From NCBI RefSeq assembly GCF_963921235.1, contig NC_086097.1:142726001-142790000 (forward strand): 64,000 bases of DNA. The letters are read 5' to 3'. The position numbers and the translations under genes are program-made. Shown one piece after another: positions 3,897-52,210 of the stretch (position 1 is its first letter; every line of letters starts with the position of its first letter). This DNA comes from Mobula hypostoma. Its lineage: Eukaryota. The notes beneath the pieces were generated by a model that worked only from the letters and a program-made list of their open reading frames with translations, did not search any database and was not told where the DNA came from.

Positions 3897-4891
3897 TTGA
3901 AAGTGCATTTATTATCAAAGGACGTATAAATTATACAACCCTGAAATTTATCTGCTTACAGGCAGTCGCAAAGCAAGGAACTCGAAAGAACCCAATTAAA
4001 AACAAGACCAACCCCCAACGTGCACAGAGAAAGAGAAAGCAAATAGAAAACAAATCATATAAAGAAGTGAGCCACTGCATTCTGAACCAAATTGAGTCCT
4101 TAAATCCAAATCCCTACAATAGGCCCAAAACCTCAGTATTATATTTATATTAGCAGGGCAAATCGCCGCAAAGTTCTCAGACATGAAGCACAGCAGCCGT
4201 GGGAAGTCTCACAGTCTTAGCGTTGCGGAGAGAGAAGCCCCCAGACTATCTGGGCCGGCGTTTAAAGTGTCCGAACCTTGCACTAGGACCCGGGCTCCGT
4301 CACCAGCGAATTGCTCTGGACCTAGATTTCGCTGCCGAAGAAGCCGTTCTTGACCTCTCCAAATCAGCTAGGGCCTAGCGCAATCTAATCTTGTCCAACT
4401 CTCAACACCTGCCTTTCCAGTCTATATGGGCCAGCACTTATATTGTTCAAACAGCGGATTGGACCTTGCTTTAGGACCCGAGCCTTACAGTGGTGAGTCG
4501 CTCCGGCTTCACCAATGCACTTTGGACCTGAATTTCACTGCCGAGGCTGTTCTTGACCTTTCCAATTCAGCTCAGCGTTTAGAGAGATCCACCCTCGTAC
4601 CTGGGTTGGTTGGACAGGGATCAGTATCCTCTGTCCCATGTTCTCCCCTCCGAGTCGTTCACACCAACCAGCAAGGCTCCAAGTCCAAGTGCATCGATTT
4701 TGCAGCGGACTAACAGGGCACATCCCGTGAATTTGCTCTGCCTTCGCTCGCTTCTTCATTGACTGCAGTGATAGTTTACCACAATTTACTGAAACAAGTG
4801 TTCTTAATAATGGTTTTAATTGAATTTCTTTGCTTTCGAACTACCAGTAAGCTGCTGCACATCTTCGGTAGCGCCATCTTAAACCAGGAAG
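3897..4891 (-). mobile_element. Non-autonomous retroelement with a Rex1-like 3' tail
   Basis: Minus 5' end TTCCTGGTTTAAGATGGCG. The 3' end tttgataataaa resembles the tails of Rex1-type copies at ~38270 and ~48480 and the fragment at 49210-49475. No RT ORF. Confidence 0.6.
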
Positions 4892-6145
4892 TTATATATA
4901 TCAGTTCAGTAAATTTTCTTTGAACTGTTTTAATGCATTATGTAAGGACAGTAGTAATTTAGAGACTATTGCAAACGTGGTCTCACCAGTGCCCTATGTA
5001 ACTGAAGGATGCCCTTTCTTACTTGTTTTCAGTTTACTAGCAATAAACAATAATGAATTACAGTAAGGTCATAAGAGATAGGAGCAGAATGAGGCCACTT
5101 GGCTCATCATGTCTGCTCTGCCATTCCATCACGGCTGATTTGCCTCTCAACCCCATTCTCCTGCATTTTCCCCGTAACCTCTGAAACCCTGACTAACCAA
5201 GAAACTACAAATATCCGCTTTAAACATACTCTATGATTTGGCTTCCGCAGCTGACTGTGGCAATTAATTCCACAGATTCACCACCCTCTGGCTAAAGAAA
5301 TTACTTCCCATCTCTGTTCTAAACAGATGTCCTTTTATTCTGCGGCTGTGCCTTCTGGTCCTAGACTCTCCCACTATAGGAAACATCCTTTCCATAACCA
5401 CTCTGTCTAGGCCTTTCAATATCCGATAGGTTTCAATGAGATTACCCCCACCATTCTTCTAAACTCCAGCGAGTACAAGCCCAGAGCCATCAAATGCTCC
5501 TCATATGTAAACCCTTTCGTTCCCAGAATCATTCACATAAACCTCCTCTGAACCATCTCCAATACCAGCATGTTTTCTTAGAAAAGGGGCCCAAAACTGC
5601 TCGCTATAGTTCAAGTGCAGTCTGACCAATGCCTTATAAAGCCTCAGCATCACATAATTGCTCATCAGTCCACTTGAAACGAATGGTAACATTGCCTTTG
5701 CCTTCCTTACCGCGACTCAACCTGCAACTTAAACTTCAGGGAAGCCTGCAGCAGGTCTCCTAAATCCCTTTGCACCTCTGATTTTTGAATTTTCTTTGTT
5801 TGGAAAATAGTCCACACTTCTTTCTGCCAAAGCGCATGACCATACACTTCCCTACGCTACATTTCACCTGTAACTTCTTTGCCCATTCTCCCAATCTAAG
5901 TCCATCAGCAGACTCTACTTACACTACCTACCCCCTCCACCTATCTTTGTATCGTCCACAAACTTGGCCACCAAGCCATCAATTCCATTATCAAATGGTT
6001 GACATCTAATGTGAAAAGAAACTGATCCAATACCAACCTCTGTGGAACACCAATCGTCTCTGGCAACCAAACAGAATAGGCTCCCTTTATCTGACTCTTT
6101 GCCTCCTGCCAGTAAGCCAATCTTCTATCCATGCCAGTATCTTTC

Positions 6146-7158
6146 CAGATCACTCTGAGCACTGGTGCCCCACATGGCTGTGTACTCAGCCCCCTGCTGT
6201 ACTCACTGTACACCCATGATTGTGTAGCCAAGTTTCCATCAAACTCAATATATAAGTTCGCTGATGACACAACAATTGTAGGCCGTATCTTGGGTAATGA
6301 TGAGTTTGAGTACAGAGAGGAAATTAAGAACCTGGTGGCATGGTGCGAAGACAATAATCTATCCCTCAACGTCAGCAAGATGAAGGAATTGGTTGTTGAC
6401 TTCAGAAGGAGTAGCAGACCACACGAACCAATTTACATCGGTGGTGCGCAAGTGGAACAGGTCAAAAGCTTTAAGTTCCTCGGGGTCAATATCACAAATG
6501 ACCTGACTTGGACCAACCAAGCAGAGTCCACTGCCAAGAAGGCCCACCAGCGCCTTTACTTCCTGAGAAAACTAAAGAAATTTGGCCTGTCCCCTAAAAC
6601 CCTCACTAATTTTTATAGATGCACCATAGAAAGCATTCTTCTAGGGTGCATCACAACCTGGTATAGAAGTTGTCCTGTCCAAGACTGGAAGAAGCTGCAG
6701 AAGATCGTGAACACGGCGCAGCACATCACACAAACCAATCTTCCGTCTTTGGACTCACTTTACACCGCATACTGTCAGAGCAGTGCTGCCAGGATAATCA
6801 AGGACACCATCCACCCAGCCAACACACTTTTCGTCACTCTTCCCTCCGGGAGAAGGCACAGGAGCTTGAAGACTCATACAGCCAGATTTGGGAACAGCTT
6901 CTTTCCAACTGTGATAAGACTGCTGAACGGATCCTGACCCAGATCTGGGCCATACACTCCAAATATCTGGACCTGCCTCTTGGTTTATTTGTACGACCTT
7001 ACTTTCCATTTTCTATTTATGATTTATAATTTAAATTTTTAATATTTACTATTGATTTGTAATCCAGGGAGCGGGAAGCGCAGAATCAAGTATCGCTGTG
7101 ATGATTATACGTTCTAGTCTCAATTGTTTGGCGACAATAAAGTATAAAGTATAAAAGT
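6146..7158 (+). mobile_element. Rex1/Babar-type LINE, 5'-truncated, young (copy A)
   Basis: Open frame [42 protein letters not shown] ending at 6937, then a 3'UTR and AATAAAGTATAAAGTATAAA tail. Confidence 0.93.
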
Positions 7159-7196
7159 AATATCGCAGGCTCTTATTTAGTTAAGCAGTCTCATAC

Positions 7197-7368
7197 GGCA
7201 ATGGTCCCCAACCTCTAGGCCGCGGACCGATACATTGCTGTGAAGAATGCAGCGGTGTAGTGGTGGCTGTAATGCACCCAGCACATCTTTAAGAAAAAAG
7301 CCGAAATAAACAAGCTAATTAATTAGGTGCCACCCGGCACGTATATGTTGGCCCAGATCAGAGGTGAT
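7197..7368 (+). mobile_element. hAT-type MITE 5' fragment
   Basis: Starts with caatggtccccaacctctaggccgcggacc, similar to the hAT terminus at 11839. Confidence 0.55.
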
Positions 7369-8672
7369 TGCTGTTACTTTCTCAAAGAATTCCAAAAGAA
7401 TTGGTATACAATATCCAGCATTTTGTACAGATCCTTCTATATTTTGTGAGCATTGCAACAACTCACCATTTACATAATTTTAATTTTAAAAAAAGATGCA
7501 TTTTTCCTACCAGTCACATTTTCCCATATTATACTTTCCATTTCCTATTAAATAGTCAATTATCTATCCACACCAATATGTTACTCTTTACACTGTGAAA
7601 TATCATTTTCTTCAATAAACTTTTATCTTATGCTTTCAGGAAATAAAATATTTTACATCCACTCTTTATCCAAAACACATTATATCTTCAAAGGGCTGCA
7701 ATAAATTGGTCAATGATGGTTTTTTGTTTTTCCTCGACATAAAACTATGTTGACATTGCCTGATTACCTTGAATTTTTCCATTGCTATGCTATGACATAA
7801 CTGCTATGACATAATCTTGAATACTTTCCTCATGACAGATGTTAAACTAACTGGATTGCCTTCTGTTTCCTTTCCTTCACGAATAAATTAGTTACATTTG
7901 CTATTTTCAAACTAATGGGATCCTCCCAAATTGAGGAAAGAATTGAAAAATCAAAGCCAAATTATCAACTATTTTACTTTAATTAAGATTTAGAACAAAG
8001 TACATCAGCAGCTAAGTCCACAGCTCCAACCATTTGTTCAGTACTACTTCCTTGGTGGTTACAAGTTTCCCCAAGTTCCACCCTCCCAAGTACAGATATT
8101 TCCAGCGTAATACTTTATCGTCTGTAATGAAGATTAACGCAAAATACTTGCTTAATTCACTTGGCATCTCATTTTATTCCACAATAACTTTCAATTAGAA
8201 CTCTGATAATTATTTTCTTTTTTGGAAGGTTACAGAAAATGTTACTTGGTATTTCTGGCTGGCATTGCTTGTACTCTAATTTTACCTCTGTTAATCTTTT
8301 AGTCAATCTTTGCTGTTTCTTTTTAACCTATCATATACAATCTGATTGCCACGCATGTTTGCACAATTATATGCTTTTTCATTTAAATTGGGGGCTACAC
8401 GGTTGCTTAGCAGTTAGCATAATACTATTATGGCTCCAGAATGTGCTGTTCTAGGAACTTATCCTGAAACCAATATGAACTCCTTATTGTTCATATAGGA
8501 AAAATACCTTTCCTTGGTATTTTTATTTTATTTGTAAATAAAATTTCCCTTGAAAAGTCCAAATTCTCCTTTAATTTCACTCAATTCCTCTGAATCAACA
8601 CTATAGCTACAGGGAGCCATATGCAATAGAACAACGTTTGCCTTATTCCAGAAGACTTGGAACAACCTGTAT

Positions 8673-10210
8673 CAAAGTTCAAAGTAAAATTTATTATCAG
8701 TGTTTTCTCGTGGGTATACTTAGAAAATCTATAGAACAGTAACTGTAAGCAGGATCAATGAACAACAAACTCTGCAAATGCAAATATAAATAAACAGCAT
8801 GAAATAATAAGATAAAGAGTCCTTAAAGGGAAACCATCGGTTGTGGGAACACTAGAAAAAGAATGACTGTAGTTATCCACTTTTGTTGAAGAGCCTGGTG
8901 GTTGAGGGATAGTAACTGTTGTTGAACCTGGTGGTGCAAGTCCTGAGGCTTTTGTACCTTCAATCTGATGGCAGCAGTGAGAAAAAAAGCTTGGTCTGGG
9001 TGGTGAGGACCTTTGATGATGGATGCTGCTTTTCTAGGGCAACATTTCAAGTAGATGTGCTCAATGTTTGGGAGGGTATTACCTCTGCTGTACTGGGTTG
9101 AATCCACTACCTTTAGTACAATTTTCTGTTCAAAGGCATTGGTGTTCCCATACCAGGCAGAAATGAAGCCAGTCAGCCCACTTCTGACCACACATCTACA
9201 GAAGTTTGTCAAGGTTTTTGCTGACATGCCGAATCTCTGCAGACTCCAAAGGAAGTAGAGGCACTGTTGTGCTTTCTTTGCAATTACATTTAAGTCCTCT
9301 GAGATGGTGACACCCAGGGATTTAAAGTTACTGACCCGCTCCACCTCTGATCCTTCAATGAGTACTGGCTCATGGATCTCTGATTTCCCTTTCCTGAAAT
9401 CTACAATCAGTACCGTGGCCTTGCTGATATTGAGTGAGAGGTTGTTGTTATTATACCAATCAGGCAAATTTTCCATCTCCCTCCTGCATGCTGATTAATC
9501 ACCACCTTTGATACAGCCCACAACAGTGGTGTCATCAGCGAACTCTTATATAGTGTTAGAACTGTACTTAGCTGTACAGTCATAAAGATAAAGCGAGTAG
9601 AGCAGGACAGCCAGATATTCCATCTGGACTGGCTACTTTTCTTGGATTCACTCACTTGAAGGCAGCCTGCAAGTCATCTTCAGATACTGAGACCAAAGGA
9701 TCATTGAAGGACATATGAGTGTGCAATGACTCCTCCCTGTTCTGGTGGTCAAAGTGAGCATAGATGATGTTGAGTTCATCTGAAAGTGATGCTCTACTGT
9801 CCCTATGTCACTAGATTCAACTTTGTAGGAAGTTATAGCAATCAAGCTGTCAAGCATCCCTCATTGATTCTAGTCTAGTCTGGAATCTCCACTTTGCCTG
9901 TAAGATGGGTTTCTGAAGATCATAGCTGCATCCCTTGAAGTATTCTTGATCTCTCGACTTGCATGCCTCTGATCTTGCCCTCCATAAATTCTGGATTTCA
10001 TGCTTCATCCAGGGTGTCTGATTGGGGTAAACTCTGAACAATTTCATGGGGACAGACTCATCTATAGCTGTCTTAATAAAGTCTATAACGACCCTGGTGT
10101 AGTCACTCAGATCCTCAAATGAATGCTTGAACATAGCCCAGTCCTCTGACTCAAGACAATCCTGTAACTGTTCCTCTGTCTCCCACTACCAACTCTTAGT
10201 TGTCTAGATC
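8673..10210 (-). mobile_element. Rex1-type LINE, decayed, with internal deletion
   Basis: Minus ORFs 8823-9476 (NNNLSLNISK..VDFRK) and 9850-10134 (YPNQTPWM). DELNIIYAHFD lies at ~9750-9780. Confidence 0.88.
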
Positions 10211-10960: not shown

Positions 10961-10968
10961 TTTTCTAT

Positions 10969-11166
10969 AAACACAAGAGATTCTGCAGATGCTGGAAATT
11001 CAGATCAACACACACAAAATGCTGGAGGAACTCAGCAGGTTGGGCAGCATTTATGGAAAGGAATAACTAAATGATGTTTTGGGTTGATACCATAGGGGTC
11101 TATGACCCTATTCCTTTCCGTAGATGCTGCCTGACCTGCTGAGTTCATCCAGCATTTTAGGTGTTG
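10969..11166. mobile_element. Penelope terminal-repeat insertion (tail + inverted repeat)
   Basis: Tail aaacacaagagattctgcagatgctggaaat, then arms aaaatgctggaggaactcagcagg.. and ..cctgctgagttcatccagcatttt. Diverged TSD-like flanks gaccctgagttttct / gactttaagctttct. Confidence 0.8.
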
Positions 11167-11699: not shown

Positions 11700-11830
11700 C
11701 CCCACATACTTATTCTGGCTTCTTCCCCCTTCCTCTCCGGTCCTGATGAAGGTTCTTGGTCTGAAACGTCAACAGTTTATTCATTTCCACAGAAGCTGCC
11801 TGACCTGCTGAGTTCCTCCAGCATTTGGTA
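11700..11830 (+). mobile_element. Penelope terminal repeat with hammerhead core (helix I degenerate)
   Basis: gtc CTGATGA aggttcttggtct GAAA cgtc at 11740-11770, followed by gctgcctgacctgctgagttcctccagcattt. Confidence 0.75.
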
Positions 11831-11838
11831 GTGTAACA

Positions 11839-12987: not shown

Positions 12988-13388
12988 GTGTAACACATAC
13001 AACAAGTTCCCCTGATTAGCTCCAAGTAACCTTTACTCTGCTCCATCCCAAAGCCAGTACAAACTTTCAGGGGAGACTGCTCAAACTGATATGTAAAGTT
13101 GTGCTCTTGTCAAATGCTTTGGAGCCTTAAGTTCATAATTCGAGCTGACAGTTCACAAGGCACCATTTCAGCAGAATACTGAAGGAGTGCTGCAATGTAG
13201 GGCAGCATTTAACAGAGGCTGGGACAGCCTTCGCCTGGTATCATGGCCAAGCTGTTCAAATGCAAAAACTGCTTATTTATATAGCCTGCAAATGTACTTA
13301 CATTAGAGGGACTGGAAGGCCACAATTTGTGTGGATCAGAAATAACATCTCCACTTCACTGATAATCAAAACCAGCTCAGCTCAAGGA

Positions 13389-13933
13389 ACAGGAATTCTG
13401 CAAATGCTGGAAATTCAAGCAACACACATCAAAGTTGCTGGTGAACGCAGCAGGCCAGGCAGCATCTCTAGGAAGAGGTACAGTCGACGTTTCAGGCCGA
13501 GACCCTTCGTCAGGACTAACTGAAGGAAGAGTTAGTAAGAGATTTGAAAGTGGGAGGGGGAGAGGGATATCCAAAATGATAGGAGAAGACAGGATGGGGA
13601 TGGATGGAGCCGAGAGCTGGACAGGTGATTGGCAAAGGGGATATGAGAGGATCATGGGACAGGAGGTCTGGGGAGAGAGACGGGGGGGGGGGAACCCAGA
13701 GGATGGGCAAGGGGTATAGTCAGAGGGACAGAGGGAGAAAAAGGAGAGTGAGAGAAAGAATGTGTGTATATAAATAAATAACGGATGGGATACGAGGGGG
13801 AGGTGGGGCATTAGTGGAAGTTAGAGAAGTCAATGTTCATGCCATCAGGTTGGAGGCTACCCAGACTGAATATAAAGTGTTGTTCCTCCAACCTGAGTGT
13901 GGCTTCATCTTTACAGTAGGGGAGGCCGTGGAT
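13389..13933 (-). mobile_element. Penelope-like element 3' fragment (GIY-YIG C-terminus + terminal repeat + tail)
   Basis: Minus translation IHGLPYCKDEATLRLEEQHFIFSLGSLQPDGMNIDFSNFH*. TSD TCAGCTCAAGGA (13377-13388, 13942-13953). Confidence 0.9.
13481..13518 (-). ncRNA. Minimal type-I hammerhead ribozyme
   Basis: Minus strand: AGTC-CTGACGA-AGGgtctcggCCT-GAAAC-GTC-GACT. Helix I AGUC/GACU, intact core, helix II AGG/CCU, palindromic ACGU in place of helix III, GUC cleavage triplet. Confidence 0.85.
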
Positions 13934-16900
13934 GCTCAAGGTCAGCTCAAGGATGTGTGCTTAGCCACTGCTCTACTCTCTCTACACCCATGACTGTGTG
14001 GCTAAGCACAGCTCAAATGTCATCATCAATTTGCTGATGACACAACTATTGTTGGCAGAATTTCAGATGGTGATGAGAGGGTGTACAGCAGTGAGATATA
14101 TCAGCTAGTGGAGTGGTGTTGCAGCAATAACCTTGCACTCAACATCAGTAAGACCAAAGTATTGATTGTGGACTTCAGAAAGAGTAAGACAACAGAGGGA
14201 TCAGAAGTGGAAAGAGTGAGCAATTTCAAGTTCCTAGTGTCAGTATCTCTGAGGATCTATCCTAGGCCCAACATATGTTTGCAGCTACAGCAGCTATATA
14301 TTTCATTAGGAGTTTTGAGGAGACTTGGTATGTTACTAAAGACACTGGCAAATTTCTACAAATGTACCATGAAGAACATTCTAACTGGCTGCATTACCAT
14401 CTGGTACGGGGGCACTGCACAGGATCAAAAGAAGCTGCAGAGTTGTAAACTTAGTCAGCTCCATTATGGGCACTAGTCTCCATAGTATCCAGGGCATCTT
14501 CCAGGAGTGATGCCTCAAAGAGGCGGCATCCATCACCAATGACATGCCTTATTCTCATTGCTACCATCAGGGAGGAGGTACAGAAGCCTCAAGGCACACT
14601 CAACCATTCAGGAATGGCTTCTTCCGCTCTGCCACCTGATTTTTGAATGGGCACTGAACCCATGACTTAATTTCTAATAGGTACTACTAATGACAAATGG
14701 AATCCTGGATTTGAATGAATTCCTCTGCCCTTCCCTCTACAAGGATCTCTAACAGTTTATCTGTCTCATCTTTTCTAGAACAACCTGATACTTCTGGACA
14801 TTATTTCAAGGTTCAAGCAGTAGGATTAAGTGCCCCTATTCAATAGAATCAGAGCTGATCTTTTGCCTTATCGTGTTCTTGTACAGGTAACCACTGCATT
14901 ATAGCAATGTGGGTAACAAAAATCCACCATTATAAAATTGACAAATTATAACCCATAATTTTGAGACATGGAATTAAATAAAATTTCTCATGTAAATTTG
15001 TTAACAAAGTAAAAAATTTTTAAAACTAGTTTCTTGATGCATGTGCAGATGACATGACATCTAAGAACACAAAATCCCCATAACATGGGCTCATCATGTA
15101 AACCTAATATCTTAGCTCCATACTCTCCAAGACAGAGAATTCTTAAGATTCACCACAATCTGGGTGAAGAGATTTCCTATCATTTTACCTCAACTGGTAG
15201 ACCTGTTATTTTGAGGCTACGACCTTCATTTCTAAATACCCTTTACAGGGTAAACATCATCCCTACATCTATTCTGTATAGCTCCAGAACAAAGTTGTAT
15301 TTTTTCTTCTGAAAGAATTATTGTCCCAGCCTGTTCAATATCTCCTGTTAGACCAATACCTCTCCATCCTAGGAAATAATCTGCTGAAGCTTTGTTGTAC
15401 TCTCTTCATTCGCCTTAGGTAGTAACATGATGCCTGAACACCATATTTCAGGTGCAGTCTTACACTGGCCAAATAACATACAGTATAATCCTCAATTTTC
15501 CCAGAATTAAAAATGTTTAATCCTCTAATAGAGTTGATGACTCAGTATCTGCAGAAAGCTGGAAGCAGAGTTCAAAAGATTCACCATATTCAGTATTAAA
15601 TGGTCAACACTGTTTTCAATACTCTTTAGTTCTAAGCCATGTTGTCTTTGAAATAAGCTTATGGCATCATCCTTAAAACTTCTTCAGAATTTTAAATATG
15701 CTTCAATGAGATCACCTGTCATTCTTCAAAACTATAGAAAATATTAGTCCATTTGGACTTTCAAAACAACTCCTCAGCCCAGGAATAAATCCAACAAATC
15801 TCTGCTTTACCCTCTCCAAGGTAAATGTTTTCTTAAATTAGGAAGCCAAAACTTTACCAAACTTCTGGACAACTGCTTATTTTCCCTCATTACACTTCAG
15901 CTGCCAATCATGTTATTAATTTGACTTGCATTGACCCCCTCTTGTAGTCTTTGTTTCCTCCTATCTTTGTATCAGCAAACTGGGATGTCCAAGTCTTACC
16001 CACCCACCACACACACACACACACCTCTAAACCCAAGACAAGCCAGCTCCAGGCCTCCAGTCCTTAGCCCTAGACTCACAAACACCAGGCCTTTGACCTC
16101 CAAACAAGCTGACACAGAGGCTTTGACCTTCAAGTTTCTACCTCCAGACTTTGCCAATCTCTGTGCATCAAATCCGTAAATATCCAATCACAGGTTTAAC
16201 ATTTGGGTTTTGACCCAGGACTTGCTTATCATGGGTTTGACCTTCAGGCCTTGATGCCAGGATTCATCGATCCAGGACTTGACCTCCGGAGACACACAGA
16301 TTTCTTACTCTGGTGACCTGGTGGGGGAGTTGGGGGCGGGGGTGTGGTGGGATCCACTGGCCTTTGCATCTCCCAGTTGGATAGATCTTCAATCCAGGGC
16401 CTAGGGATAGCCAATGTGAAAATCATTGGTCTCCTCAGTTCCTGCAGACTCAACCTCTGAGATCGCTGACCTTCGACAGAGGATGATGAACACCGGCTCC
16501 TGCCCTGACCTCTAATTCTCCCTCATCCCAGTCCCTGAACCCTAACCTGGCCTCTAACGCACTGCAGTGTCCCAAAAACCATTGCCATGAACCTAAAAAA
16601 ACAGCAACTAAGTTTGAGCCATGACATCACTGGACATCACAGCTTGGCATAATCTTGACCTAAACTTATCTTTTGTAGTAACCTTTTACATATGACATAA
16701 TCAAAGTTTTTTTGCAAATCCTTTTATTCTATGGGATACTTCAAGAATATAAACTTATTATAATATCTTTTCATTAAAGCACAGATAAACAAGTAACACC
16801 CGTTATCATTCAACAGCAAGCACTAGCATTTTCCACAACACTGAATCTAGGCTAACTGCACTGTTGTTGCTGCTTTTCCTATCCCCAGAGTATGTTTCAT

Positions 16901-18043
16901 TTGCTGTTTTCTGACTTGCCGTAACAGTTCCAGAATCTAGAGAATTAAAGGTAAAAAAAAACCCCTCCTATATTTGACATTATTAAACACTGTGACCAGT
17001 ACTGTTCAGAGTACTCTCAACTGTGGCTTGTTACAAGCCCAACATACATTTGCTGCTCCTTGATTCTCTCAACACTTGGCTTATTTCTCCCCTACTACCC
17101 CCAGAAATGTCTTTAGTGACTTGTACTCTTCTTCACTGCACCCTTTCGTGTAACTTGGACACTGATTTCCCAAGTAGTTCATAGCTTGATTATTCATACT
17201 ACCAAAATTGAATTCCTCACATTTGTTTGCTATTTACACTCCTCCTACAAATTAATGTCTTACCTCTATTTATATCGACACCTTCAGTTCTCCATTTGCA
17301 TGGACTCTTATCCAGTTATACACACACCCAGATTTTATACAATACTTATAACTTCAAATCAGTGGCTATAACACTGATCCTTTCCCGAGTCAGATTTATT
17401 ACATATATGCTTGCAAGTAAAAGATAAAATTATTATTATTAGCATAATCATTACACATCAAGGACAACCAGTGTACCTTTAAGATACACAGAATCATATA
17501 CTCTAGGATCGATAATTTGGCCTCATATTTTTCATGTACAGGTCCTAAAGTCTAAAATTATTAATATGACGTGCCACCCTTTTCAATAGGCTGTTTTATA
17601 AATTATGTTAAAAATTGTGCTTCAGAAATTTACCAAGGTTACAGATACAGTATGCCCCTCTCCCATAACCTCTACCATTGAGGACTAGGCATTACATTGA
17701 CCACTTTGTAAGAAAACAGTTTAAAATACATTGAAATGCTTTCACTAAACCAAGAAAATACACTGCAGTCACACGGAGACCCAGACCATTAAAAGTAATA
17801 GGTTCTCTTTTCAAAGGGCATTGATCAGTGAGTTGGGATTCAATACCTATTACAAAAACCAAGGGTCTTTGAGGAGAAGGAGAACTGAAAGTATAGGGAC
17901 TCTGTGCAGGAAACCCACGGTAGTGCACAGAGTGAAGAGCGGTGCTTTGCAACAATTTGTCAACATAGCAAAGTAAAATGGTTGACCTAAAAGTCACGTA
18001 GTCCCTTTGAGCATTTCATTCAAAATAAACAGGACAGAACATC

Positions 18044-18049
18044 TTTATT
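18044..18049 (-). promoter_or_regulatory. Candidate poly(A) signal
   Basis: AATAAA on the minus strand followed by GU/U-rich gatgttctgtcctgtttattttg, in a TE-poor block. Confidence 0.4.
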
Positions 18050-18310
18050 CAGAGGAGGAGGAGGAGGAGAAGAATGCTATAGTACTTTGAATATTTGAGG
18101 TGAATAACATGGATGCATTAAAAAGGATGCCGGCTGCAAGGTTCATTCTTACACCGCAAAAAAATGCAAGCTGAGCCAATCGCATTGAGTGACTAACTTT
18201 ATAAAACTCGCTGCATAAATATTAATTGGAAAATGAAATTACAATAGCTGGTGTTGATCAGGACTGAGATATGTTTAGAGTAATTAGTATGTTGCGAGAA
18301 CAGGAAATAA

Positions 18311-18418
18311 TTCACTTTGACAAGTAATGGCTTCCCATGGCAATGAACATGCAAATCAGGAATAAAGGCTGATCCTCATGTTCATTGCCATGGGAAGTTA
18401 TTACCCTGTTAAAGTGAA
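18311..18418. repeat. Long inverted repeat / hairpin
   Basis: CTTCCCATGGCAATGAACATG (18331-18351) is perfectly inverted at 18377-18397. The stem extends imperfectly to about 41 bp, with an inner stem ATCAG/CTGAT. Confidence 0.9.
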
Positions 18419-19032
18419 CATTTTCAGGTTAAAGTGGAAATAAGGGAGGCAAACAATTGCCGATACATTTCAGTTTCCAAACTATCCTCACTTACATATT
18501 ACTATTTTAAATTAATACAGTTATGATGGAAATTTGCAATGCAACAATACTATGCTTTATTTATACCATCCTATAAGTTTGAAGTCCTGCAGTGTCTCCC
18601 AGCAAGGAGGATGTAATTAATTAGATAACTTAGAAATTGGGAATTATACTGAATTGACAGGTTAATTAATTGGATTAATATCAGAAAATAATATACACCT
18701 ATTAACAAAATAAAATTCATGAGAATGCTGTTATATCGTCTTCATTTCAACCTAAATTAGTACCTCCTCAGACTTCAGTACTTAGAAGGATATTGCCATT
18801 TCTAGCCTGGTTCATGTCTGCATTCTCCAATGTCAACATGAGAGCTAGGTTTTAAAGTAAATTTATAGTCAATTAATACTCGTACAACTTTATAGAAATA
18901 ATTGCTGAAAAATATTTTCATATCATCTTCATATTGTATAGATTCCATAAACATGGAACATCCAATTTTGGATGCAGAACTGTGGAACATTTAATTAAAA
19001 GCATGAGTAATCACAGGAGTTGACTGTCTCAC

Positions 19033-19152
19033 CCCATCGTAAGCATGTCTCCAGTGGACTGAACTTGGGGAGGCATCGATAGTCCAGGTGACATATGCAG
19101 TTCGGTCCATCCTTCCCTTGTCGGTGATGGAGGGCGAGGAGAGGCAGGAGCC
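19033..19152 (-). other. Candidate internal exon (120 nt) of the minus-strand host gene
   Basis: Acceptor tctttcatgtcttctcacaag| and donor GG|gtgaga. GC- and CpG-richer than its flanks, with no stop in any frame. Phase 2 reads APASPRPPSPTREGWTELHMSPGLSMPPQVQSTGDMLTM. Confidence 0.7.
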
Positions 19153-19488
19153 CTTGTGAGAAGACATGAAAGACAAGTCAACAAATTGAACGTCTCATAG
19201 TCAAAGCATTGTGCAAATCATCACTTTGATGATACAGACTGAATGCTTAATGTGATACTTGTCTGCATGGTCACACATAGGTCACATAGTAAAGAAAACA
19301 TTTGCCAAGAATTGCTTAATATTGACTAGGAACTCAAAGATTAATCTTCTGGGCATTGAAAGGAAATTGGATACATGGCATTAGAAAAGTAGAACTGTAT
19401 GACTTAATTCTGCCAGATTATTACTGAGTAATCCTTTGCCTTCAGCAATACAACTGTACTTCCACTGTCGTTAAGTCAAGTATCTTAC

Positions 19489-19522
19489 ACAATCAGGCAT
19501 CCAGGCAACCTCCATTTGCCAT
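19489..19522 (-). other. Candidate 34-nt exon
   Basis: Acceptor tttctcatcttacag| and donor GT|gtaaga. Confidence 0.4.
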
Positions 19523-21112
19523 CTGTAAGATGAGAAATTGACAAGCCACCAAAACTCTTTTATATAGAGGCACTTCAATTAAACCAGTTTGACTACTGTG
19601 ATCCAAACACACAACTGGTTCTACTTTAGTTAAGAAAGTACTCGCATCTTTTTTAATGCAGAAATAAGAGGGCACACAAACCAGTTTTCACCTGGAAATC
19701 AGAAAAATGGTGGTACAGGCACTGGCACTTAAATGAGTAAAAGGCAAAGATACATAAAATGTTCTTCAAGCTTCATACTTTGTAATGACCTCCCAAGCAG
19801 TGGTAGAGGCAAAACTTCCAGAATCACTCAATAATGAACTGGATACAAAATTGGAGGAATCAGCTGAGGGGATGAATTAAGGTGATCTGTATGACTTTCC
19901 TCATTTGCAGTTTTCTCTCAAGAGTGACTTTGGTAAAACATTTATATCTGGGCTTCTCAATTTACCCAAAGCTTCTGAGAATTTTCTACAAACAAATTAC
20001 ATGCTCTTAAACATATTTACCGTGCAACTTTAATAGCTTTCAGTGCTCTTTCATATCCTTATGAACATCTTCCAGTTTATTTTCATCAAAAATGAATTTG
20101 TTTTGTGTAATACATACTGACACCCTCTAATTACTCTCTTCAGAAAACAGATCTTGGATGAATGTGACTTTCCAACCTATTCAAACTGCAAGAACACGTT
20201 CAACACATGCACATTTTTTCCATAAAAGCTACATTTCTGCCAACTCTTGTGCAGAGGAAGGAACACCACATACTTGCAGTCATTCTCTTTCAGATGAACA
20301 ATAAACAAAGATCTCAGCACATCCCAAAAATACTTTACAGCAAGTGAATTACTTTTTACTTACATTAAATTAATATATTAACCAGTTTATTTATGTGCTG
20401 ACTGAAGAATAACCATTCAGTGCTGTTAAGGGTCAGCCTAGATTGTGCACAAACATCTCAAGTGGGATCTGAACTACTGATCTTTTGGTTAAGAGCATTT
20501 CCAAAGGTGATGCATAAACAAATAGAATTCTACTCTTTCTCAAAAAGGTGCAATGGTGTCTTAACTATTATCTTGGAAGACAGAAATGTTTAACAATTTA
20601 TCTGAAAATTAGCATCTCAATACTGCAGCATTGTCTTTTTACTGGACAAAAGCATTATTCTGGATTCTGGACTTCAGTACTTGTATGATGGGTATGAGGG
20701 TTTGAAGTCACATTGCTTTCAAAATTGAGAGCTTTACTGAGTCATGATCAACTCCAAATGACGGTTTTCTCAAGTGTCATTAAAGATTTATTGACCCTTG
20801 CCACAGTTATGCAATGTTCCTTGTTAAATAAGCTACTACAGAAAAATCAACTATATTCTTCTAAAAATCAACTCACTGCTTTGAGTTGGTGGACTGTATT
20901 CATCTTCAAGTCTGAATGAATACGCCACAGTTGTTAATTTAGTAAAACCTGTGAGGATGAGTGTGTGCCTATGACAATGTACCTATATCTTATGGTCTTA
21001 TACTGTACATACCCGAATCAAAAGTAGTGGCTGAACTAGGAGATCGTTGTCTGCTGAGAGCTTAATCTGTGGCATTCAAGTTTGGTGATCCACAACTATA
21101 CAAGAAGGTCAG

Positions 21113-24100
21113 TGTGTTGCCCTTAAGGCATTGTTGGGTCTTCGCTTTAAATTATTCGTTTGTAACTATTTTCTAGTTAAAGTTAAAGGTTGATAATTCA
21201 GTTACAGTATAACAAAAGTAAATTCATTGTTTATGGTATATCGCGGCATGTGATGAGGTCACCTCCGGTTTCGCCGCGTCTTATGTGTCACCTCCGGTTT
21301 GGAGAAGGTGTAAAGGTGGGTGCCATGCGTGCAGCATGATCGTGAAGAGCTCCGTGTCTACTCACAAAGGAACATTATAGAAGCAACGTCGTAAGTTCCT
21401 ATGAAAGTATTTGAAGTAAAAATATTAACGCGGTTTCTGTTAAGGAAGTGGCGGTTCGGGTGGCGCACGTGTGTCGGCTTTTCAATTTCACATGCAGGGT
21501 GGGTTCGAGCCTGGTGGCAGTTTGACAGGACTCCCCCCCCCCCCGCTACTCGGGGCGGCTGGAGACACTCGCTAAAAGAGAGCGCGCGTGGTCTCCAGAA
21601 TGAAACAGACGCTGTATGTTTGAATTTTCTTGTCAACAGTTTTCACCATACGATGTTAATGTGGAAAAGTGCATAGTAAATGGTTAACCTTACTACCACT
21701 CTGTCTTCACTGGCTCCGGTTTAACTTGGTGTTTAGTCAGAGTTTCAACATAGTGCACAAGAACACTACAGTGAAAATACGGTATCATTCGGTGTTTTGA
21801 CAAGTGGTACCATGGCTTCGCGATCAAGCACCAAGTCGCTTGCACTCAGCGCCAAGAGCAGTAGGACGTCGACAAGTGTGGCTGCCCTTGTAAGAGCTAA
21901 AGCAGAAGCCGCCAAGGTGCGAGCCTCATACGTAACCAAGAAGCAAGACTGAAAATGGAAAAAGCTGCCAGAGAAGTGGAAAAGCAGTTGGAAAAGGCAA
22001 GGATAGATACAGAGTTAGAGGTGCTGATGCTATGAGGAGCTGATGTGGCCGCGGTGGAAGCACAACTGTTGGAAAATGCTGAAAAAATGTACGTTCTCAA
22101 CAAAACAGGAAAATCTATGTCAGAAAGGACCAAATTGGAACGCATCAGTAAATATGTCCAATATCAAATTGACCTGCAGATTCATTCTCCCTCTCCATAT
22201 TTGCCTATTGGCGTCCCATCTTGTGAAATCACAGGGAAGCTTCGTTGCATCGCGTCCACCTGGGGAAGACAACTCACAATTGCAACCTTGCCACAAAGTC
22301 AAGTATGAAAGGGCTGACTACGAATACTTCCTGACACCAAACTTACCAGACCCGGCGAGATCAGAGACAAAGGCCGAAGTCAGAACATCAAATCTCATCA
22401 TGAACGTACACGCTCAGTCATATGTCCCCCAACATATTCCCCCAGCTAGCACGCCACCTGCAGCAGAACCCTTGACACAGTATTTAGCGCGACGAGACCT
22501 CGTCAACTCAAGACTGTACCAGTTTGACAATAAGCCTGAAAGTTACCATACATTGTACTCCTCATTCACCAGCGCCACCAGCGGAGTCTAGCTCACAGCA
22601 ATCCAAGCGTTGGACCTTATGACTAAATGGCTGGGAAAGGAATCAAGTGAACAGGTGAAACGCATACGCTCAGTGTACGTCAGCAACCCCAAGCTAGCCT
22701 TACACAACGCATGGGAGAGACTGTGGGAGTGCTATGTGGCCCCTGAAATTATTGAGATGGTGCTATTTCAACGGCTGGACAATTTTCCTAGGGTGTCAGC
22801 CAAGGACCACACTAAATTACGAGAACTCGGAGATTTACTCATGGAGATTCAAGGTGCTAAAGAAGATGGCTATTTAACTGGCCTGTCGTATCTGGATACC
22901 TCACATGGAGTTGGACCAACTGTGGACAAACTTCCATTTGAGCTGCAGGGAAGATGGGTGTCTATTGGCTCAGAGTACAAGGAAGAGAACGGTGGTCGGT
23001 TCCCTCCCTTTGAGTATTTTAGTAGGTTTGTGTGCAAGGAGGCGAAACGACCCTAGCTTCATGAATCAAGGCAGCACCACAACTCACACCAACCCAGTCA
23101 AACCCATTTTGAACAATTTTGTCATCAATAAACCCATCTCAGTGCATAAAACCGAAGTCTCCACAATCAACGATGCCCTAACAAGAATTGTCCATTGCAC
23201 AACAAACCCCACCCCCTCAAAAAATGCAGAATGTTTTGAAACAAACCCTTTGACGAAAGAAAGGCCCTTCTCAAGGAAAAAAGAATATGTTTTAAGTGCT
23301 GTTCCTCTACCTCCCACCTTGCTAAAGAGTGTACGTTCCTCATAAAGTGCTCGGAATGTAACATCACTAATCACGATGGAGCCATGCATCCTGGCCCGTC
23401 ACCGCAAACTGCCAAAGCTCCTCCACTCCCACAAGAGGATGGCGGGGAGGGAGAGCATCACTCTGATACAACTATTGTCAGCTCAAGCTGCACAGAAGTT
23501 TGCAGTCCAGGTCAGTCGAGCCATTTGTGCTCAAAGATCTGCTTCACTAAGATGTACCCTAAGGGAGTTAAAGACAAGGCCATCAAAGCCTATGTAATTC
23601 TGGACGACCAGAACAACCGCTCGCTACTGAGACCAGAGTTCTTCGAGTTGTTCAGCGTAAAGGGTAATCCATTCCCATACTACCTCAGAACTTGCTCTGG
23701 CATCGCAGAAACATATGGCAAGAAGGCAGAAAGCTTCCAGCTCGAGTCGCTGGATGGCAAAGTCGTCATCAGTCTCCCTCCACTCTTAGAGTGCAATGAG
23801 ATCTTAAATAACCGATCCGAGATTCCGACGCCAAGCACAGTGCTACACCAACCCCATCTCCACCACATTGCCAAGCACATCCCAGAACTGGATCTGGAAG
23901 CAGAAATACTCCTGCTACTCGGAAGAGATGTTCTTAGGGTGCACAAAGTCAGGCAGCAGGTCAATGGACCACACAACGCCCCCTTTGCCCAACGTCTGGA
24001 TCTGGGCTGGGTGGTGATAGGAGAGGTGTGCCCTGGCAACGTACACAAACCGACAGTTAAGACGCTCAAGACTAACGTGCTAGAGAGAGGCCACCATTCA

Positions 24101-24979: not shown

Positions 24980-25029
24980 GTCAGGTATGATTTACGAAGG
25001 GCTATCTCGAGAGCAAAAGACCAATTCTG

Positions 25030-29278: not shown

Positions 29279-30196
29279 GATAACTCATCAGTGCAATACT
29301 GGAGAGCTGAATTAACGGTCCCATATCTTGAATTTGACATTAAAACATGGTTGCTCACCAATCAGGTAGACATCAAAGATCTGGCTCTATTTAAAGAACA
29401 AATAAATGGGCAGATTTGCATTCACATGGCATGTTTCATAACTTTAGAGCCTCCCAAAATACATAAAATCTCAGGGTTTAAATCAAGCCCCGAGAGTCCT
29501 CTCCTTAGACTGCAATCCTTATTCTTTTAAATTAATACGTTTGGTACAATTGCTGATTCTAGTTACTTCCACATCTTCAGCACTCAGTTGCATCCCAAGC
29601 TCATGAAAATCTCTCTCCGAACTCTTACATTTGATCCCCTCCAATCTGGCTTGTGCTCTGCCATTGTACTAAAATTCCTTTAATCAAGTTCACAAATGAC
29701 TTCGTGTGTCTGTGATGCAGCTGGACTGAACCATTCACCTTTGCATTCAAGTCTTTGTAAAAGTAAATAAAAGGCACTTTGACAATGTCTGTTCCCACCA
29801 TCCAACTCAAGGGGATTCACCCTGCTCATTACACAGATCCAGGTATGGCCAGAGAATTACTTCTGATGGCTTCACACCAGCAGTTTTGGCAAATGCTGAT
29901 TCACAGAAAAGATCTCCACCTGTCTCTGCATTCACAGATCAACTGTTGGGATAAATATTTACAGAAATTATCTAATTTCACACACATCTGGAAAACAGAA
30001 AATGCTAGAAACATTCATCTGAGGAGGAAGAAACACATCCAGTATTTTAGGATGCTAACGCAAGTCTGTACTATCTCACTTAATTCCTGAAGTCCCTTTA
30101 CAGCGATAAACTGGCTGCCCAACAGCCAAACTTGGATCAGTCACAAATCCCCCTAGCTAATGTGAGAATTTCAAAACCACTTCCTATAGAGACGTA

Positions 30197-36229: not shown

Positions 36230-36312
36230 TAGTTTCGCCACTTACAGTCATCATGAAATTGGATTCAATGAAAAATCTGATAAATCAGTTCTAGATTGCA
36301 GGAACTCTTTGC

Positions 36313-36775
36313 AAAACACACAAAATGCTGGAGGAACCCCGGAGGCCAGGCAGCATCTATGGAAAATGTACAGTCGACATTTTGAGCTAAAACCCTTTGG
36401 CAGGACTGGAGGAAAAAAGATGAGTCGATTTAAAAGGTGGGACAGGGGAAAGAAAAACAGAAAGTGACAGGTGAAACCAAGAGGAGGAAGGATGAAGTAA
36501 AGAGTTGGGAAGTTATTGGTGAAAGAGATACAGGGCTGGAGAAGGGAGGAGTCTGATAGGATAGGACAGAAGGCCATGGAAGAAAGAAAAGGGGGGGAGA
36601 GGGAGGAGCACCAAAGGGAGGTGATGGGCAGGCAAGGAGATAAAGTGATAGAGGGAAAAAGGGATGGGAAATGGTGAAGGCAGTTGGGGGGTGGGGGGGA
36701 CATTACCGGAAGTTCAAGAAATCAATGTTCACGTCATCACGTTGAAAGCTACCCAGACAAAATACAAGGTGTGTA
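36313..36775 (-). mobile_element. Penelope-like 3' fragment with degenerate hammerhead
   Basis: HLVFCLGSFQRDDVNIDFLNFR*. Terminal repeat with the core mutated (CTGCCAA..CAAAATGTC). Confidence 0.82.
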
Positions 36776-37531
36776 CCACCAGCGTAAGTCTTTGGCTTGT
36801 TCTGACTTGAGTCAAGTGGTATAGAATTTAAATCCCACTTTTGACAAATCTGGAAAGAGGAGGCTGCAGCTCTGGTGTTACAGTCTGGATTAATGTTCAG
36901 TGGAATACCAGAGTTCAATGGTTTGGGATGCTCTCACTCCTCAATGCTCCTGCCTTATGCAAGCTACTGTAAAGACTAAAAACATGGAAGCAGCAACTAA
37001 CTTGAGACCAGTCTGCTACTCTTGTTATCTCAAACTGATGAAATGAAACCATTTACACTGACAAATCATTTTTGGCTGCTTACACCATTACCTAGGAATA
37101 TCCAATCCTTGACATCAGCAATCCGACCCAATAGACACGGCAACTAAAGCAGGTTGACAAGATAATTTGATGAAACACCGTCTAATCAACTTCTGTGATT
37201 AATTTATATCCCATATATAGTTGAATCCAAGGAACATGTAATTATAAAAAAGGGGTAGTAAAAGGAAGTATCACACAAATGGAAAAAACTTAGCAACTCA
37301 ATGTAATTTTGCTAGATGTTAAAGCTGAGAAAATAACTAACCCAGTTGTCTCAAAAATTCCCAGTGTGTGCAGGCAATACACTGCTATATTTTCTCCACT
37401 GACATTAAAATTTAAAAACTCTATATAAACTAAATGAACACGTTCTGCTTCTCTTCCATTTGAGAGAATAGTTTCTGCCAGTAATCTGTTACTGTAGTGC
37501 TGAATGTACGTATCGAATGCTTTGTACTCAC

Positions 37532-39495: not shown

Positions 39496-40372
39496 TCTTA
39501 GACAGTTGCAACATGGTTTCCTTACTCTTATATTCAATGTCTTGGCTGATGGTGCAAATCATGTTATTATGATTTCTTTACAACCCCACCTACCCTTGTG
39601 GGACTACTGACTCTATCCCTCTATATATCAAAGTAAGTCCCATACATTTAGGATTAACTACTCTTGTGGAGTTATTTATCAAGCCACTAAATTATACAAA
39701 AACACTAAAGTCAACATGAAGAAGCACCTTCACGACATAGTGTTTGTCTTATTCTTAGGGATCTGCAGTGATACACATGTTCATAAAGTTAAAGTCCAAA
39801 AGATTCCCCTGCATTGTTCAAAGGAGGGAAGAAAATCCTTCCGATTCTAACCTGTGCTAAAAAACGGTGAGACCCCTAATCAATTATGCTCAAAAAAGTC
39901 TAACTGGTCATTCACCTCATTGTGTGATCTTACTGTGTGGAAATTACTGACTATGAAAAGCTGGCTTGATTTTAACATGATACACAAATTCTCAATAGGC
40001 TAGTGTGCAGGAAAGTTTAACAGAATGTTATTGTTTATTTCTCAAGAAACTGATTACAAAGGTAGGAAGATTACACTACAATTAGAGAGTACTGTTAAAT
40101 TCACACCCAGAGTATTGTGTGCAGTATTGATCCTATTTAAGGATGTTAAGGCATTGAAAACATTCACAGATTTGTTAATCTGGAATGGGTGGGTTGAATT
40201 TTGAAGGAAAATTAAACAGGTTTAGTTGGCCTTCAGAATTGTGGGAAGCCACCACATTAGACCCAGAGGTGGATGTGGTGATGATGTTTTCTCTTGGGGG
40301 TGGGGGAGGGGGGAGGTGAATCAACAACTAAGGAGTCACTGTTAAAGGTAAGAGCATCACCCACTTAAAGCA

Positions 40373-40561
40373 AACAATAGGAATTCTGCAGATGCTGGAA
40401 ATTCAAGCAACACACATAAAAGTTGCTGGTGAATGCAGCAGGCCAGGCAGCATCTCTAGGAAGAGGTGCAGTCGACGTTTCTCGGCCTGAAACGTCGACT
40501 GCACCGCTTCCTAGAGATGCTGCCTGGCCTGCTGCGTTCACCAGCAACTTTTATGTGTGTT
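40373..40561. mobile_element. Penelope terminal-repeat palindromic insertion
   Basis: 36-nt tail plus 73-bp inverted arms (40409-40481 / 40489-40561, 2 mismatches). 14-bp TSD ACCCACTTAAAGCA. Sits in an old CR1 fragment. Confidence 0.93.
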
Positions 40562-42342
40562 ACCCACTTAAAGCAGATGTGCCAAAATTATTTCTCTCAG
40601 AGTTGTCAATACTTGTATCTCCTTCCCCAGGAGTAGGGTGGAAGCAAAGTCTTTGAATATTTTGAGGCAGAGGTAGATGGGTCCTTGATAAGCAAGGGGT
40701 GAAGGTTACCAGAGATAAGCAGGAATGTGGAGCTGGGGTACAATAAGATCAGTTGCAATCTTATTAAATGCTGCTGCAAGCTTGAGCGGCTGATTAACCT
40801 TTAACTTTTTCTAATTTGCATGCAAGCATGTATTTGTACATGTTTTTTATACCACATTAGGACATCCTTGGTATTGTTTACTGCTGGCTGTGCTTAACAG
40901 AATGATGATGATGTTTAACTACCCACAGAATCTGAACACCTCCCTTAATTACTCCTACTTCTGACTAATTGTACTACATAGTTCCCACCTTTTTTAAGAA
41001 TCAGAAAGTTGAATATTGAGGGTCTGTTCTAGGGAGTAGACCATATGCAGATCACTGCACTCTGGTGCAGTGGGAGCAGTATACTCCTAGAAGTACTATA
41101 CTTTAAAATATAAAATATAAGGAGGCATAGTAAGCTGAAACAGTTGGACGAGGAGTGGACTCCCTGCTTTCTTCCCATCATCACTTTCATAGCTTTGATC
41201 ATTCACATCACTGCTGTCTATGAAACCTCAATAGCAAAAGCTGGCTGTTGTTTCCAATACTACAATAATGACCATACATCAAAATTCTTATTGGATTCTT
41301 ATTCCAGTGTATTTATAATGTACAAATTCTTTATTTCCACCACACCGGAACCCAAGCCCACACATTGACAACTGCCAAACATGAGTGACGTGACAAACAC
41401 AACTCAGTATCTTTATGTTTATTCATTAATGAGACATGGCCACTGCTAGTAATGGTAGCAATTTGGCATTAAGGTGGTGGTACTGGGTTACCTTCAACTA
41501 CTACAGTCCAAGTATATGTTCTACGGGTGTACTGTTATATAAAAAGTAGCTGAAGAAATGCTGAGAAATTTACAGGCCACAATGATATATGGCCTAGAGG
41601 GCAACCTGCAGCTGTGTCCCCATCAAATTATTTCCGTGTGCACAGAATGGCTGTAGCCAGTGTCGCCATCCATTCTATTTTTTTCTAAAATGCTGCTTTG
41701 ATGTCAGAATCAGATCAGACACTCCCAACTCACCTTCGAATTTCAGCCCTGCTGTCTGTCCATCTTTGGATAAAGATTGCATTGCGGCTTGGAGGCAAGT
41801 GGTCCAGGTGGAGACCAAAGAGAGGTTTGGTGAACGAGTTACGGGTTTAGGAACAATTTAAGAGCACTAACATTGACATCTCCCATCATAATGCTGGTAA
41901 TTCAGAGAAGAGCAGTTGTATAGTAACTCCACAGCTTGGACTTGTCTTGCTTTCTATGGACAGGTCACATATGGCCAATTTTCACATTTCTGGGTAATAA
42001 GCTGTTACAGCCAACACGCAGATAGTGTGCCAGAATGTCTTTATAAGTACAGCCAGGTTGCTGAAGCTTAAACGTTTGGGCTATTTCTTGATATTATACA
42101 CCACGAGTGGCTTTGACGATGGTGGGGATGTCAGTAGATGATCAGCCACTCAGCATTTCTGGGGGACCACAGCTGCAAAAATTTCAACACTGTCTTTTAC
42201 AGTCAAGTGTAAGACTCCACCATCTTTGAGGCGAGAATGCTGAAGGATCCTCCTCCTTCCATTAACTGTTATACCGCTCCACTGGCATTCATGGCTGGAT
42301 GTGGCAGAAGTGCAGGATTGCTGAACTGCTGTCGTGGGATCA

Positions 42343-42475
42343 TAAACACAAGAGATTCTGCAGATGCTGGAAATCCAGAGTAACACACACAAAATGCTGG
42401 AGGAACTCAGCAGGTCAGGCAGCATCTAAAGAGAGGATTAAAGAACCGACGTTTCAGGCTGAGACCCTTCATCAG
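42343..42475 (-). mobile_element. Penelope terminal-repeat insertion beginning at the hammerhead core
   Basis: Minus: CTGATGA AGGgtctcagCCT GAAACGTC...tail. 13-bp TSD TGTC(G/A)TGGGATCA. Confidence 0.88.
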
Positions 42476-51339: not shown

Positions 51340-52210
51340 GAGATATTTCGGTTACTTACTCGGTCGGGTGCTCTGGGTCATAAGCGTCCCCCATCTTCAC
51401 CGAGCGGCGCTATTTTACTCAAAACATTCAGCATGAAAAACGAAAAAAAATAAAACAACGAGGGCAAAAAAAAAACCTCCAACGATTTTCTGAGCCGGCG
51501 TGTAAATTTCTTCTCCACCTTTGGAAGGTTCAGACTTCTGCTCCGGGACTGACAACTCGACGTTCCGAAATTAGGATCCCGGCGCCTGCGACGTTCCAAA
51601 ATCGAACCTTTTTGTATCAATTCTCCCTTCCGATCCGATAAAAATGTTGTCCTTCAGTTTTATTCCATGCTCGCTGCCGCTCCGCCGCCCGCCGCCGGCC
51701 GCCGGCCTCCTTATGGAATCCACACTCGAACTCCCTCTTTCTAAAACATCCTTCCCATATTTAAATATATATTGTACCTTGTGTGTGTATATACACATAT
51801 AAAAAACACCAGGCACGAGATCTATTTAATCCCCGCTTCGCCTCTGCAAAACAAAATGAATGCGAAAAAATTCTTCCATCAGAAAACAATGTACTTTTTT
51901 ATATTTATAGCCATTTTAATTTGTCTTCTTTCTTTCTGGTTCCCCTTTTGCTTTAAGCACACATTATATTTGTGTGTGTTTGTATTTTTTCAACCTCGAG
52001 AAAGAACACTAGGACGATGTACGTCGCTCCGTAACAAACGGAAATGAACCGAGAACAGTTTTTTTCGATGCGACTGGGACTTTCCTGTGAAATTGACAGT
52101 CATCCGGGCCAACTGAAAGTGTCGAGCCAGTTTATGAAACTGACTGCCATAAGAGATATTTTATTATGTTTCGTTTGTGAGGAGCTGCTGCTGAAACTGA
52201 TCAGGTTTGT
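51340..52210. promoter_or_regulatory. CpG island / probable bidirectional promoter
   Basis: The only long CpG-rich, TE-free stretch in the window. (GCC)n-like tract at 51673-51705. Outward-facing splice donors at 51359 (minus) and 52205 (plus). Confidence 0.8.
51360..51394 (-). CDS. First-exon ORF start (MGDAYDPEHPT, phase 2) of an unidentified gene; CDS start or uORF
   Basis: Kozak-compatible aagATGG, then donor GA|gtaagt at the edge of the CpG island. Confidence 0.6.

Follow-up and report, generated by a model that had tools for sequence, protein, structure and literature searches.

The hammerhead motif and the insertion around it

The window, by which we mean the whole 64-kb stretch of Mobula hypostoma DNA that was analysed, carries on its minus strand a minimal type-I hammerhead motif, recognized by its sequence and its core pattern. 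It lies in a 5'-truncated insertion of a Penelope-like element (PLE), which in turn sits at the end of an unrelated LINE fragment. The features at this place are as follows.

13481..13518, minus strand: minimal type-I hammerhead motif
13514-13518 (5' strand) and 13481-13485 (3' strand), minus strand: helix I
13507-13513, minus strand: core CUGACGA, with C3 at 13513
13506, minus strand: extra A ahead of helix II
13502-13505 and 13494-13497, loop 13498-13501, minus strand: helix II, with U11.1 at 13494
13489-13493 and 13486-13488, minus strand: GAAAC and GUC
13486 (C17) / 13485, minus strand: predicted scissile bond
13389..13941, minus strand: 5'-truncated Penelope-like insertion, 553 nt, with the end of the ORF, a pyrimidine-rich 3' UTR/pLTR, the hammerhead and a 3' tail
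13811..13933, minus strand: GIY-YIG endonuclease C-terminus, last ~40 codons and stop, by likeness to full-length relatives
13942..13953, minus strand: target-site duplication, upstream copy, 12 bp, identical to 13377-13388
13377..13388, minus strand: target-site duplication, downstream copy, 12 bp
13948..14665, plus strand: unrelated LINE fragment at whose end the Penelope element inserted; its relatives in the window match RVT_1

All positions of the hammerhead core, namely C3 U4 G5 A6 N7 G8 A9, G12 A13 A14 A15.1 and U16.1 C17 in the definition of PMC3088659, are present. Helix I consists of UAGUC and GACUG, which make four Watson-Crick pairs and one U.G, helix II is formed by GGGU and GCCU around the loop CUCG with one extra A in front, and helix III is reduced to the palindrome ACGU, there being no loop III. 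The minus-strand letters, the full core, the pairing of helices I and II and the ACGU helix III given in the preliminary description are thus borne out by the sequence. Its word "intact" holds for the complete core and the paired helices and needs correction at 10.1-11.1, the most conserved pair, which is here a G.U wobble, paired but not G-C; no measurement on a G.U at this pair was found in the available text of PMC2837043 or PMC544870. A loose core pattern has nine matches within the 64-kb window. The Rfam hammerhead models, proposed earlier as a check, gave no match: scanning the window at E<=1 returned four matches and scanning 13300-13700 at E<=10 returned three, none of them to a hammerhead family, as is expected for a motif without helix III.

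The insertion at 13389-13941 is 92.7% identical over 548 nt to a tandem-array unit elsewhere in the genome. Its translated part, 13811-13933, gives no Pfam match by itself and is nearly identical to the C-terminus of the 785-aa frame, with reverse transcriptase (RT) and GIY-YIG parts, of the full-length relatives. The stop codon ends at 13811, 298 nt before C3, in agreement with the ~290 nt stated at the outset, and this anatomy likewise upholds the placement of the motif in a Penelope terminal repeat, a class of ribozyme location already known from PMC4209133.

Full-length relatives of the element were found by a protein search of the genome. At one locus (C40:574501-584500) units of 3510 nt follow one another head to tail, and three identical hammerheads recur at this same spacing. 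The 785-aa frame matches RVT_1 (E=4.3e-5) and GIY-YIG (E=0.0032) in Pfam, both below the curated cut-offs, and its translation reads two cysteines between GIY and YIG (CCHH) and a CX4CxxC linker. Upstream lies a frame of ~300 aa, whose first in-frame ATGs are ~170-220 nt downstream of the hammerhead core and which is offset by one base from the RT frame in 35 of 36 copies, all of them selected by a query with that offset; a programmed frameshift between the two frames is conceivable. The 3' ends of copies form two groups, at +83 to +104 and at +122 or beyond, and match the optional tail of PLEs. The loose ends of certain contigs also fit these two groups; the contigs come from four runs of one study that we guess to be RNA, none of the runs recorded as RNA being listed for this stretch, they show no strand, ends or levels, and they were compared over 13040-21050. 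Partial tandems of 3510-nt units, inverted truncated copies and the optional tail are all present in the family. Since two cysteines between GIY and YIG together with a CX2-5CxxC linker are described in PMC8557442 as marks of the EN+ Neptune and Nematis elements, the parent element is, by these sequence marks, an EN+ PLE of Neptune/Nematis type, the choice between Neptune and Nematis being one of motifs.

The host gene SETD2 and the neighbouring copies

The following exons and further copies of the family were annotated in the window.

19033..19152, minus strand: SETD2 exon, 120 nt, exact match in contigs, AG..GT ends on the minus strand only
51360..51394, minus strand: coding part of the first SETD2 exon, ATG to donor, by in-frame joining
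11740..11834, plus strand: older family copy, antisense in SETD2 pre-mRNA, core present, helices damaged
36311..36789, minus strand: older family copy in intron 1, sense, core broken (A6C lineage and further changes)
42355..42475, minus strand: older family copy in intron 1, sense, beginning at C3, core present, helix I 5' strand absent
40372..40563, no strand assigned: young fold-back copy, two inverted pLTR tails joined inside the hammerhead, with target duplication

The host gene was identified only through the flanking DNA, where minus-strand exons of a SET-domain gene are found, one of which matches human SETD2 best (E=2.8e-13). A single reading frame runs through the first coding exon (51394-51360), the exon of 120 nt and a large exon whose start is ~9.9 kb ahead of the window, and the 120-nt exon is contained exactly in contigs of 10.3-11.2 kb from three of the four possibly-RNA runs, ~0.1-0.8 kb from one contig end. 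The donor of 19033-19152 opens the intron that holds the motif, which lies 5.5 kb below it; the intron measures ~28.9 kb if, as we infer, splicing goes from 19033 directly to the downstream large exon, a micro-exon in between being possible. Exon order, frame joining and the match to human SETD2 identify the host gene as minus-strand SETD2, with the motif in one of its introns in sense orientation, which agrees with the earlier proposal that it lies sense in an intron of a minus-strand gene. The window alone would not have revealed the gene: there are 169 frames of at least 75 aa, and the 150 of them that were scanned with Pfam gave transposon domains and weak stray matches only, searches of PDB and Pfam with the 120-nt exon in its three frames were of no help, and splice-site scans of the window missed this exon. 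It encodes a proline-rich stretch. The introns hold other transposons as well. Frames at 21111-24981 in intron 1 look like those of a BEL/Pao-type LTR retrotransposon but have no database match, and two direct repeats of ~680 nt, 89% identical, flank them. LINE fragments of 1 kb at 6149-7157 and 28284-29279 are 93% identical to each other and have RVT_1 and ALKBH8_N matches in Pfam.

Regarding other copies of the family, the list in the preliminary description was right that members exist in the window, and it overlooked the fold-back copies at 10967-11164, 40372-40563 and 49780-49864. The first and the last of these are short insertions of two inverted pLTR tails, that at 49780-49864 with a target duplication. 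The further idea that the listed copies could serve as intronic dimer partners fails for each of them. In the pre-mRNA of SETD2 the copies at 11740, 27770 and 48505 appear in antisense, so that they present no hammerhead and are at most able to base-pair with sense copies; the cores at 27770 and 48505 are broken in addition. The 36370 copy reads CUGCCAA/AAAAU where the core should be, the 42447 copy has no helix I 5' strand, and both (36370 and 42447-42475) sit in the previous SETD2 intron, not in that of the motif.

SETD2 contains only one intact sense partner, an exact copy that belongs to the same intron but lies beyond the window, 14.7 kb downstream of the motif. It forms one arm of an inverted pair of 701 nt, 90% identical; this young Penelope pair has two exact hammerheads and is found at about -1384 to -654 relative to the window start. 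In pre-mRNA the pair would form a long double-stranded stem, possibly an editing substrate, so that the partner is likely to be double-stranded. Family sequence is very abundant in the four possibly-RNA runs, and partners in trans may exist for the intronic motif.

Copies across the genome and selection on the motif

The exact 31-nt core occurs 39,897 times in the 3.48-Gb genome and its reversed control 0 times; the intactness of the motif at 13481-13518 thus reflects youth. A CpG-tolerant core pattern with A6 has at least 79,154 matches, about one per 44 kb, so that a sense copy in a 29-kb intron is expected. Tail patterns gave 95,506 young and 22,754 older matches, and among 39 young copies ascertained by the tail, 11 carry an identical 39-mer, the copy at 13481-13518 being one of them. 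Our literature search found no paper on this Penelope family, which may be listed in the supplements of PMC4209133 and of a 2026 preprint that reports one chondrichthyan.

The most amplified young lineage carries U11.1, which makes the G.U closing pair, together with C7. The 31-mer with C11.1 has 6,207 exact copies against the 39,897 with U11.1, and 20 of 29 young copies ascertained by the tail carry U11.1, as do 21 of 22 motifs of long-frame loci, these loci having been selected by likeness to one young copy. At the 10.1-11.1 pair, 114 sampled copies have G.U in 61 cases and G-C in 44, and the extra A before helix II in 108. CpG decay was considered as the source of U11.1 and rejected, because U:C is 6.4:1 with other CpGs intact and U prevails in the (selected) long-frame motifs as well. 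The dominance of U11.1 and C7 may be due to selection for a weak ribozyme or to drift in one master. An older lineage has A6C, with at least 3,625 matches compared with 1,165 for A6G plus A6T; A6C is present in eight of ten spanning copies and in 9 of 25 older-tail copies. The copy at 36311-36789 in the window belongs to this lineage.

The ends of copies give some view of how the motif is used by the element. The 5' ends of young copies fall within -10 to +5 of C3 in 18 of 53 cases and within +22 to +33, the cut-site zone, in one, BLAST ends being uncertain by a few bases; the copy at 13481-13518 and most others span the cut site. These facts and the amplification of the A6C lineage argue that efficient cutting is not central to the element. 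A joint in contigs of two of the four possibly-RNA runs, leading from the tail at 13412 to 13485, the first base past the cut site, was considered as a trace of cleavage and rejected as not special genome-wide. There are 21 tail-to-body junctions in the genome with re-entry spread over +6 to +35, of which, by eye, two fit +28 and two more +29, mostly with microhomology.

A second, unrelated hammerhead family has the same core, the extra A and a G-C closing pair around a different 7-bp helix II (for example C1:93755518-93755553). Its pattern has 333 matches against 65 for the control, the family itself making up about two thirds of the 100 matches listed, as counted by eye. It is of lower copy number than the main family. 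The shared core supports a real hammerhead as far as sequence comparison can tell. In the main family, covariation among the 114 sampled copies is weak and variation consists mostly of CpG decay and loop II changes.

The effect of sense copies on introns was approached through giant laminin-G genes, located by Pfam exon hits, with five 200-kb stretches in three genes, on both strands and 1.0 Mb in all; these genes are of neuronal type and their strands come from the same exon hits. Intact copies (core and helix I) number 12 sense to 11 antisense, those without an inverted neighbour within 1.5 kb 8 to 8, and all family matches 78 to 80. This shows no strong selection against sense copies in introns: the 95% interval for 12 of 23 sense copies is 31-73%, which excludes strong depletion and is compatible with a mild one. 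As introns cut by slow hammerheads reportedly can still splice (PMC2995048), absence of a strand bias is no proof of absence of cutting. Successive intact sense copies are 1.4-75 kb apart (eight gaps), which makes the arrangement in SETD2 typical.

Folding, cleavage and likeness to known systems

The minimum free energy (MFE) structure of the 38-mer is a rod of -11.0 kcal/mol (z = -1.2), in which core GACG is paired with cut-site CGUC. The open, active-like monomer is computed at -7.0 kcal/mol, the active dimer at -11.5 against -22 kcal/mol for two rods, and helix I has a probability of 0.001 in its 438-nt native context. C7 strengthens the rod, which is -9.2 kcal/mol with U7. These nearest-neighbour energies are indicative only, since they omit core tertiary contacts, Mg2+ and proteins and therefore invariably score hammerhead folds too poorly. 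Neither the monomer nor the motif in its local context is predicted to adopt the active fold, and cleavage of host RNA by the motif at 13481-13518 is unlikely on this modelling.

The predicted rod agrees with experiments on other PLE motifs. For single min-HHRs (minimal hammerhead ribozymes) cleavage was undetectable and for dimers it was low (PMC4209133). The hammerhead of an anole PLE was cut only with its protein and was dispensable for insertion in vitro, and no reads ending at its cut site were found there (PMC11167929). Among natural frog dimers in vitro, eight of nine were uncut and one was active (bioRxiv 2026.07.22.740005). As for core changes, a natural hammerhead with A6C was weakly yet measurably active (PMC3088659), and variants altered in the CUGA turn were of low activity in a mutational scan (PMC9901934). 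Splicing of introns cut by slow hammerheads is reported second-hand in PMC2995048.

By analogy with published work on other PLEs, the hammerhead would be selected for its part in the element's own read-through RNA, where the hammerheads of neighbouring units may join by their ACGU palindromes and cleave behind GUC, a slow reaction that the element's protein probably aids. As the present copy extends across the scissile bond, the RNA from which it was made was uncut, or rejoined, at that point; reverse transcription probably began in the tail ~100 nt downstream of the core and ended ~430 nt upstream of it. Alone in the SETD2 pre-mRNA, the motif should, on the folding prediction, be an inactive rod, its core GACG paired with the cut-site CGUC.

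Our preferred reading, with a probability of about 0.85, is that the motif is a min-HHR in a 5'-truncated PLE copy, a neutral passenger that sits in sense orientation in a SETD2 intron and is predicted to remain uncut, since by itself it is unable to close helix III and no partner is free to pair with it. It is unlikely that the motif cuts the SETD2 pre-mRNA to a meaningful extent, either in a long-range dimer with the 14.7-kb copy or in trans through family RNA or protein, with SETD2 processing affected or else tolerant. The core and helices are complete and the motif is sense in a transcribed gene, but the rod and local misfolding are predicted and 10.1-11.1 is G.U. An exact sense copy does lie in the same intron; as an arm of the 701-nt inverted pair, however, it would be double-stranded. 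The abundance of family sequence in the possibly-RNA contigs and the protein-assisted cleavage shown for another PLE (PMC11167929) would make cutting in trans thinkable, whereas sense copies show no depletion (12:11), the anole site has no read ends in that same report, and eight of nine frog dimers stayed uncut (bioRxiv 2026.07.22.740005). A wider idea holds that the element's protein or its abundant RNA switches on tens of thousands of sense intronic hammerheads, a burst cutting host pre-mRNAs genome-wide, with the weak forms (G10.1.U11.1 with C7, and A6C) being those tolerable to the host. We regard it as very unlikely; if true, it would be a new route for a retrotransposon to affect host RNA, and the Mobula hypostoma genome would be an unusually powerful test system.

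At the level of the family, and compatible with the passenger reading, the motif might mainly be a structural landmark, at which the RNA starts or the copying enzyme stops, its catalysis being weak or dispensable. We hold this to be a tentative and rather doubtful view. The 5' ends pile up at the front edge, not at the cut site, and the 21 tail-to-body junctions re-enter anywhere from +6 to +35. A lineage with A6C, a change of low activity in PMC3088659, was amplified, but most lineages keep A6; the most amplified lineage has the rod-favouring U11.1 and C7, whereas the second family keeps the core, the extra A and a G-C closing pair around its own 7-bp helix II, and the same core around a different helix II is expected under selection on a real hammerhead. 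That the likeness to a hammerhead is due to chance is hardly conceivable: the missing Rfam match, the folding z-score of only -1.2 and the lack of any common double-sided compensatory change within the family would fit it, but all core positions are present in a place where PLE hammerheads are known (PMC4209133), the same core frames a different helix II in the second family (333 against 65 in the control), and the 31-mer has 39,897 exact copies against 0 for its reversed control.

Returning to the passenger reading, the finding as such matters little, since min-HHRs of PLE terminal repeats were described in 2014. What is specific to this case is the location in SETD2 and the small orientation test, the kind of motif itself being already known. 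The additions are this first small test of orientation in introns and the rod-favouring G.U and C7 in the most amplified lineage, and both are relevant to whether PLE hammerheads cut in vivo.

Among known systems, the closest are the min-HHRs of Cervera and De la Pena 2014 (PMC4209133), which likewise have the type-I layout, the full core, a helix I of 4-5 bp, the pLTR location, an extra nucleotide before helix II, a palindromic 15.2-16.2 and no loop III, and which occur mostly as solo copies spread through the genome. In contrast to them, helix II is here 4 bp with G10.1.U11.1, also in most young copies, where the usual pair is G-C, and there are at least 79,154 copies, compared with 4,000-9,000 in coelacanth and Xenopus. 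With the EN+ Neptune/Nematis PLEs of Craig et al. 2021 (PMC8557442) the element shares the order of RT and C-terminal GIY-YIG, the two cysteines, the CX4CxxC linker, the partial tandems, the inverted 5'-truncated copies and an optional tail of 30-40 nt. PAc, a Poseidon element of Anolis (Frangieh et al. 2024, PMC11167929), is similar in having its hammerhead upstream of the RT start sites, two 3' ends that define a tail, and copies made from uncut RNA; however, it belongs to another clade, and its ORF starts in stem II, whereas the ATGs are here ~170-220 nt past the core. The amniote hammerheads of RECK and C10orf118 (PMC3088659) are also sense inside host-gene introns, but those are conserved across species and cut in vitro as single motifs, whereas the motif described here belongs to a young, high-copy transposon insertion, has no stable helix III and has a rod as its monomer MFE structure. 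The non-LTR retrozymes of Li et al. (bioRxiv 10.64898/2026.07.22.740005), reported also from one chondrichthyan, have a type-I hammerhead of PLE-pLTR origin as well, but they are short non-coding tandem repeats, while the present copy is a solo insertion of 553 nt with the end of a PLE ORF. The motif at 13481-13518 is thus neither a canonical Rfam hammerhead nor a retrozyme nor a conserved intronic hammerhead of RECK type, and by its sequence descriptor it belongs to the min-HHRs of metazoan PLE terminal repeats.
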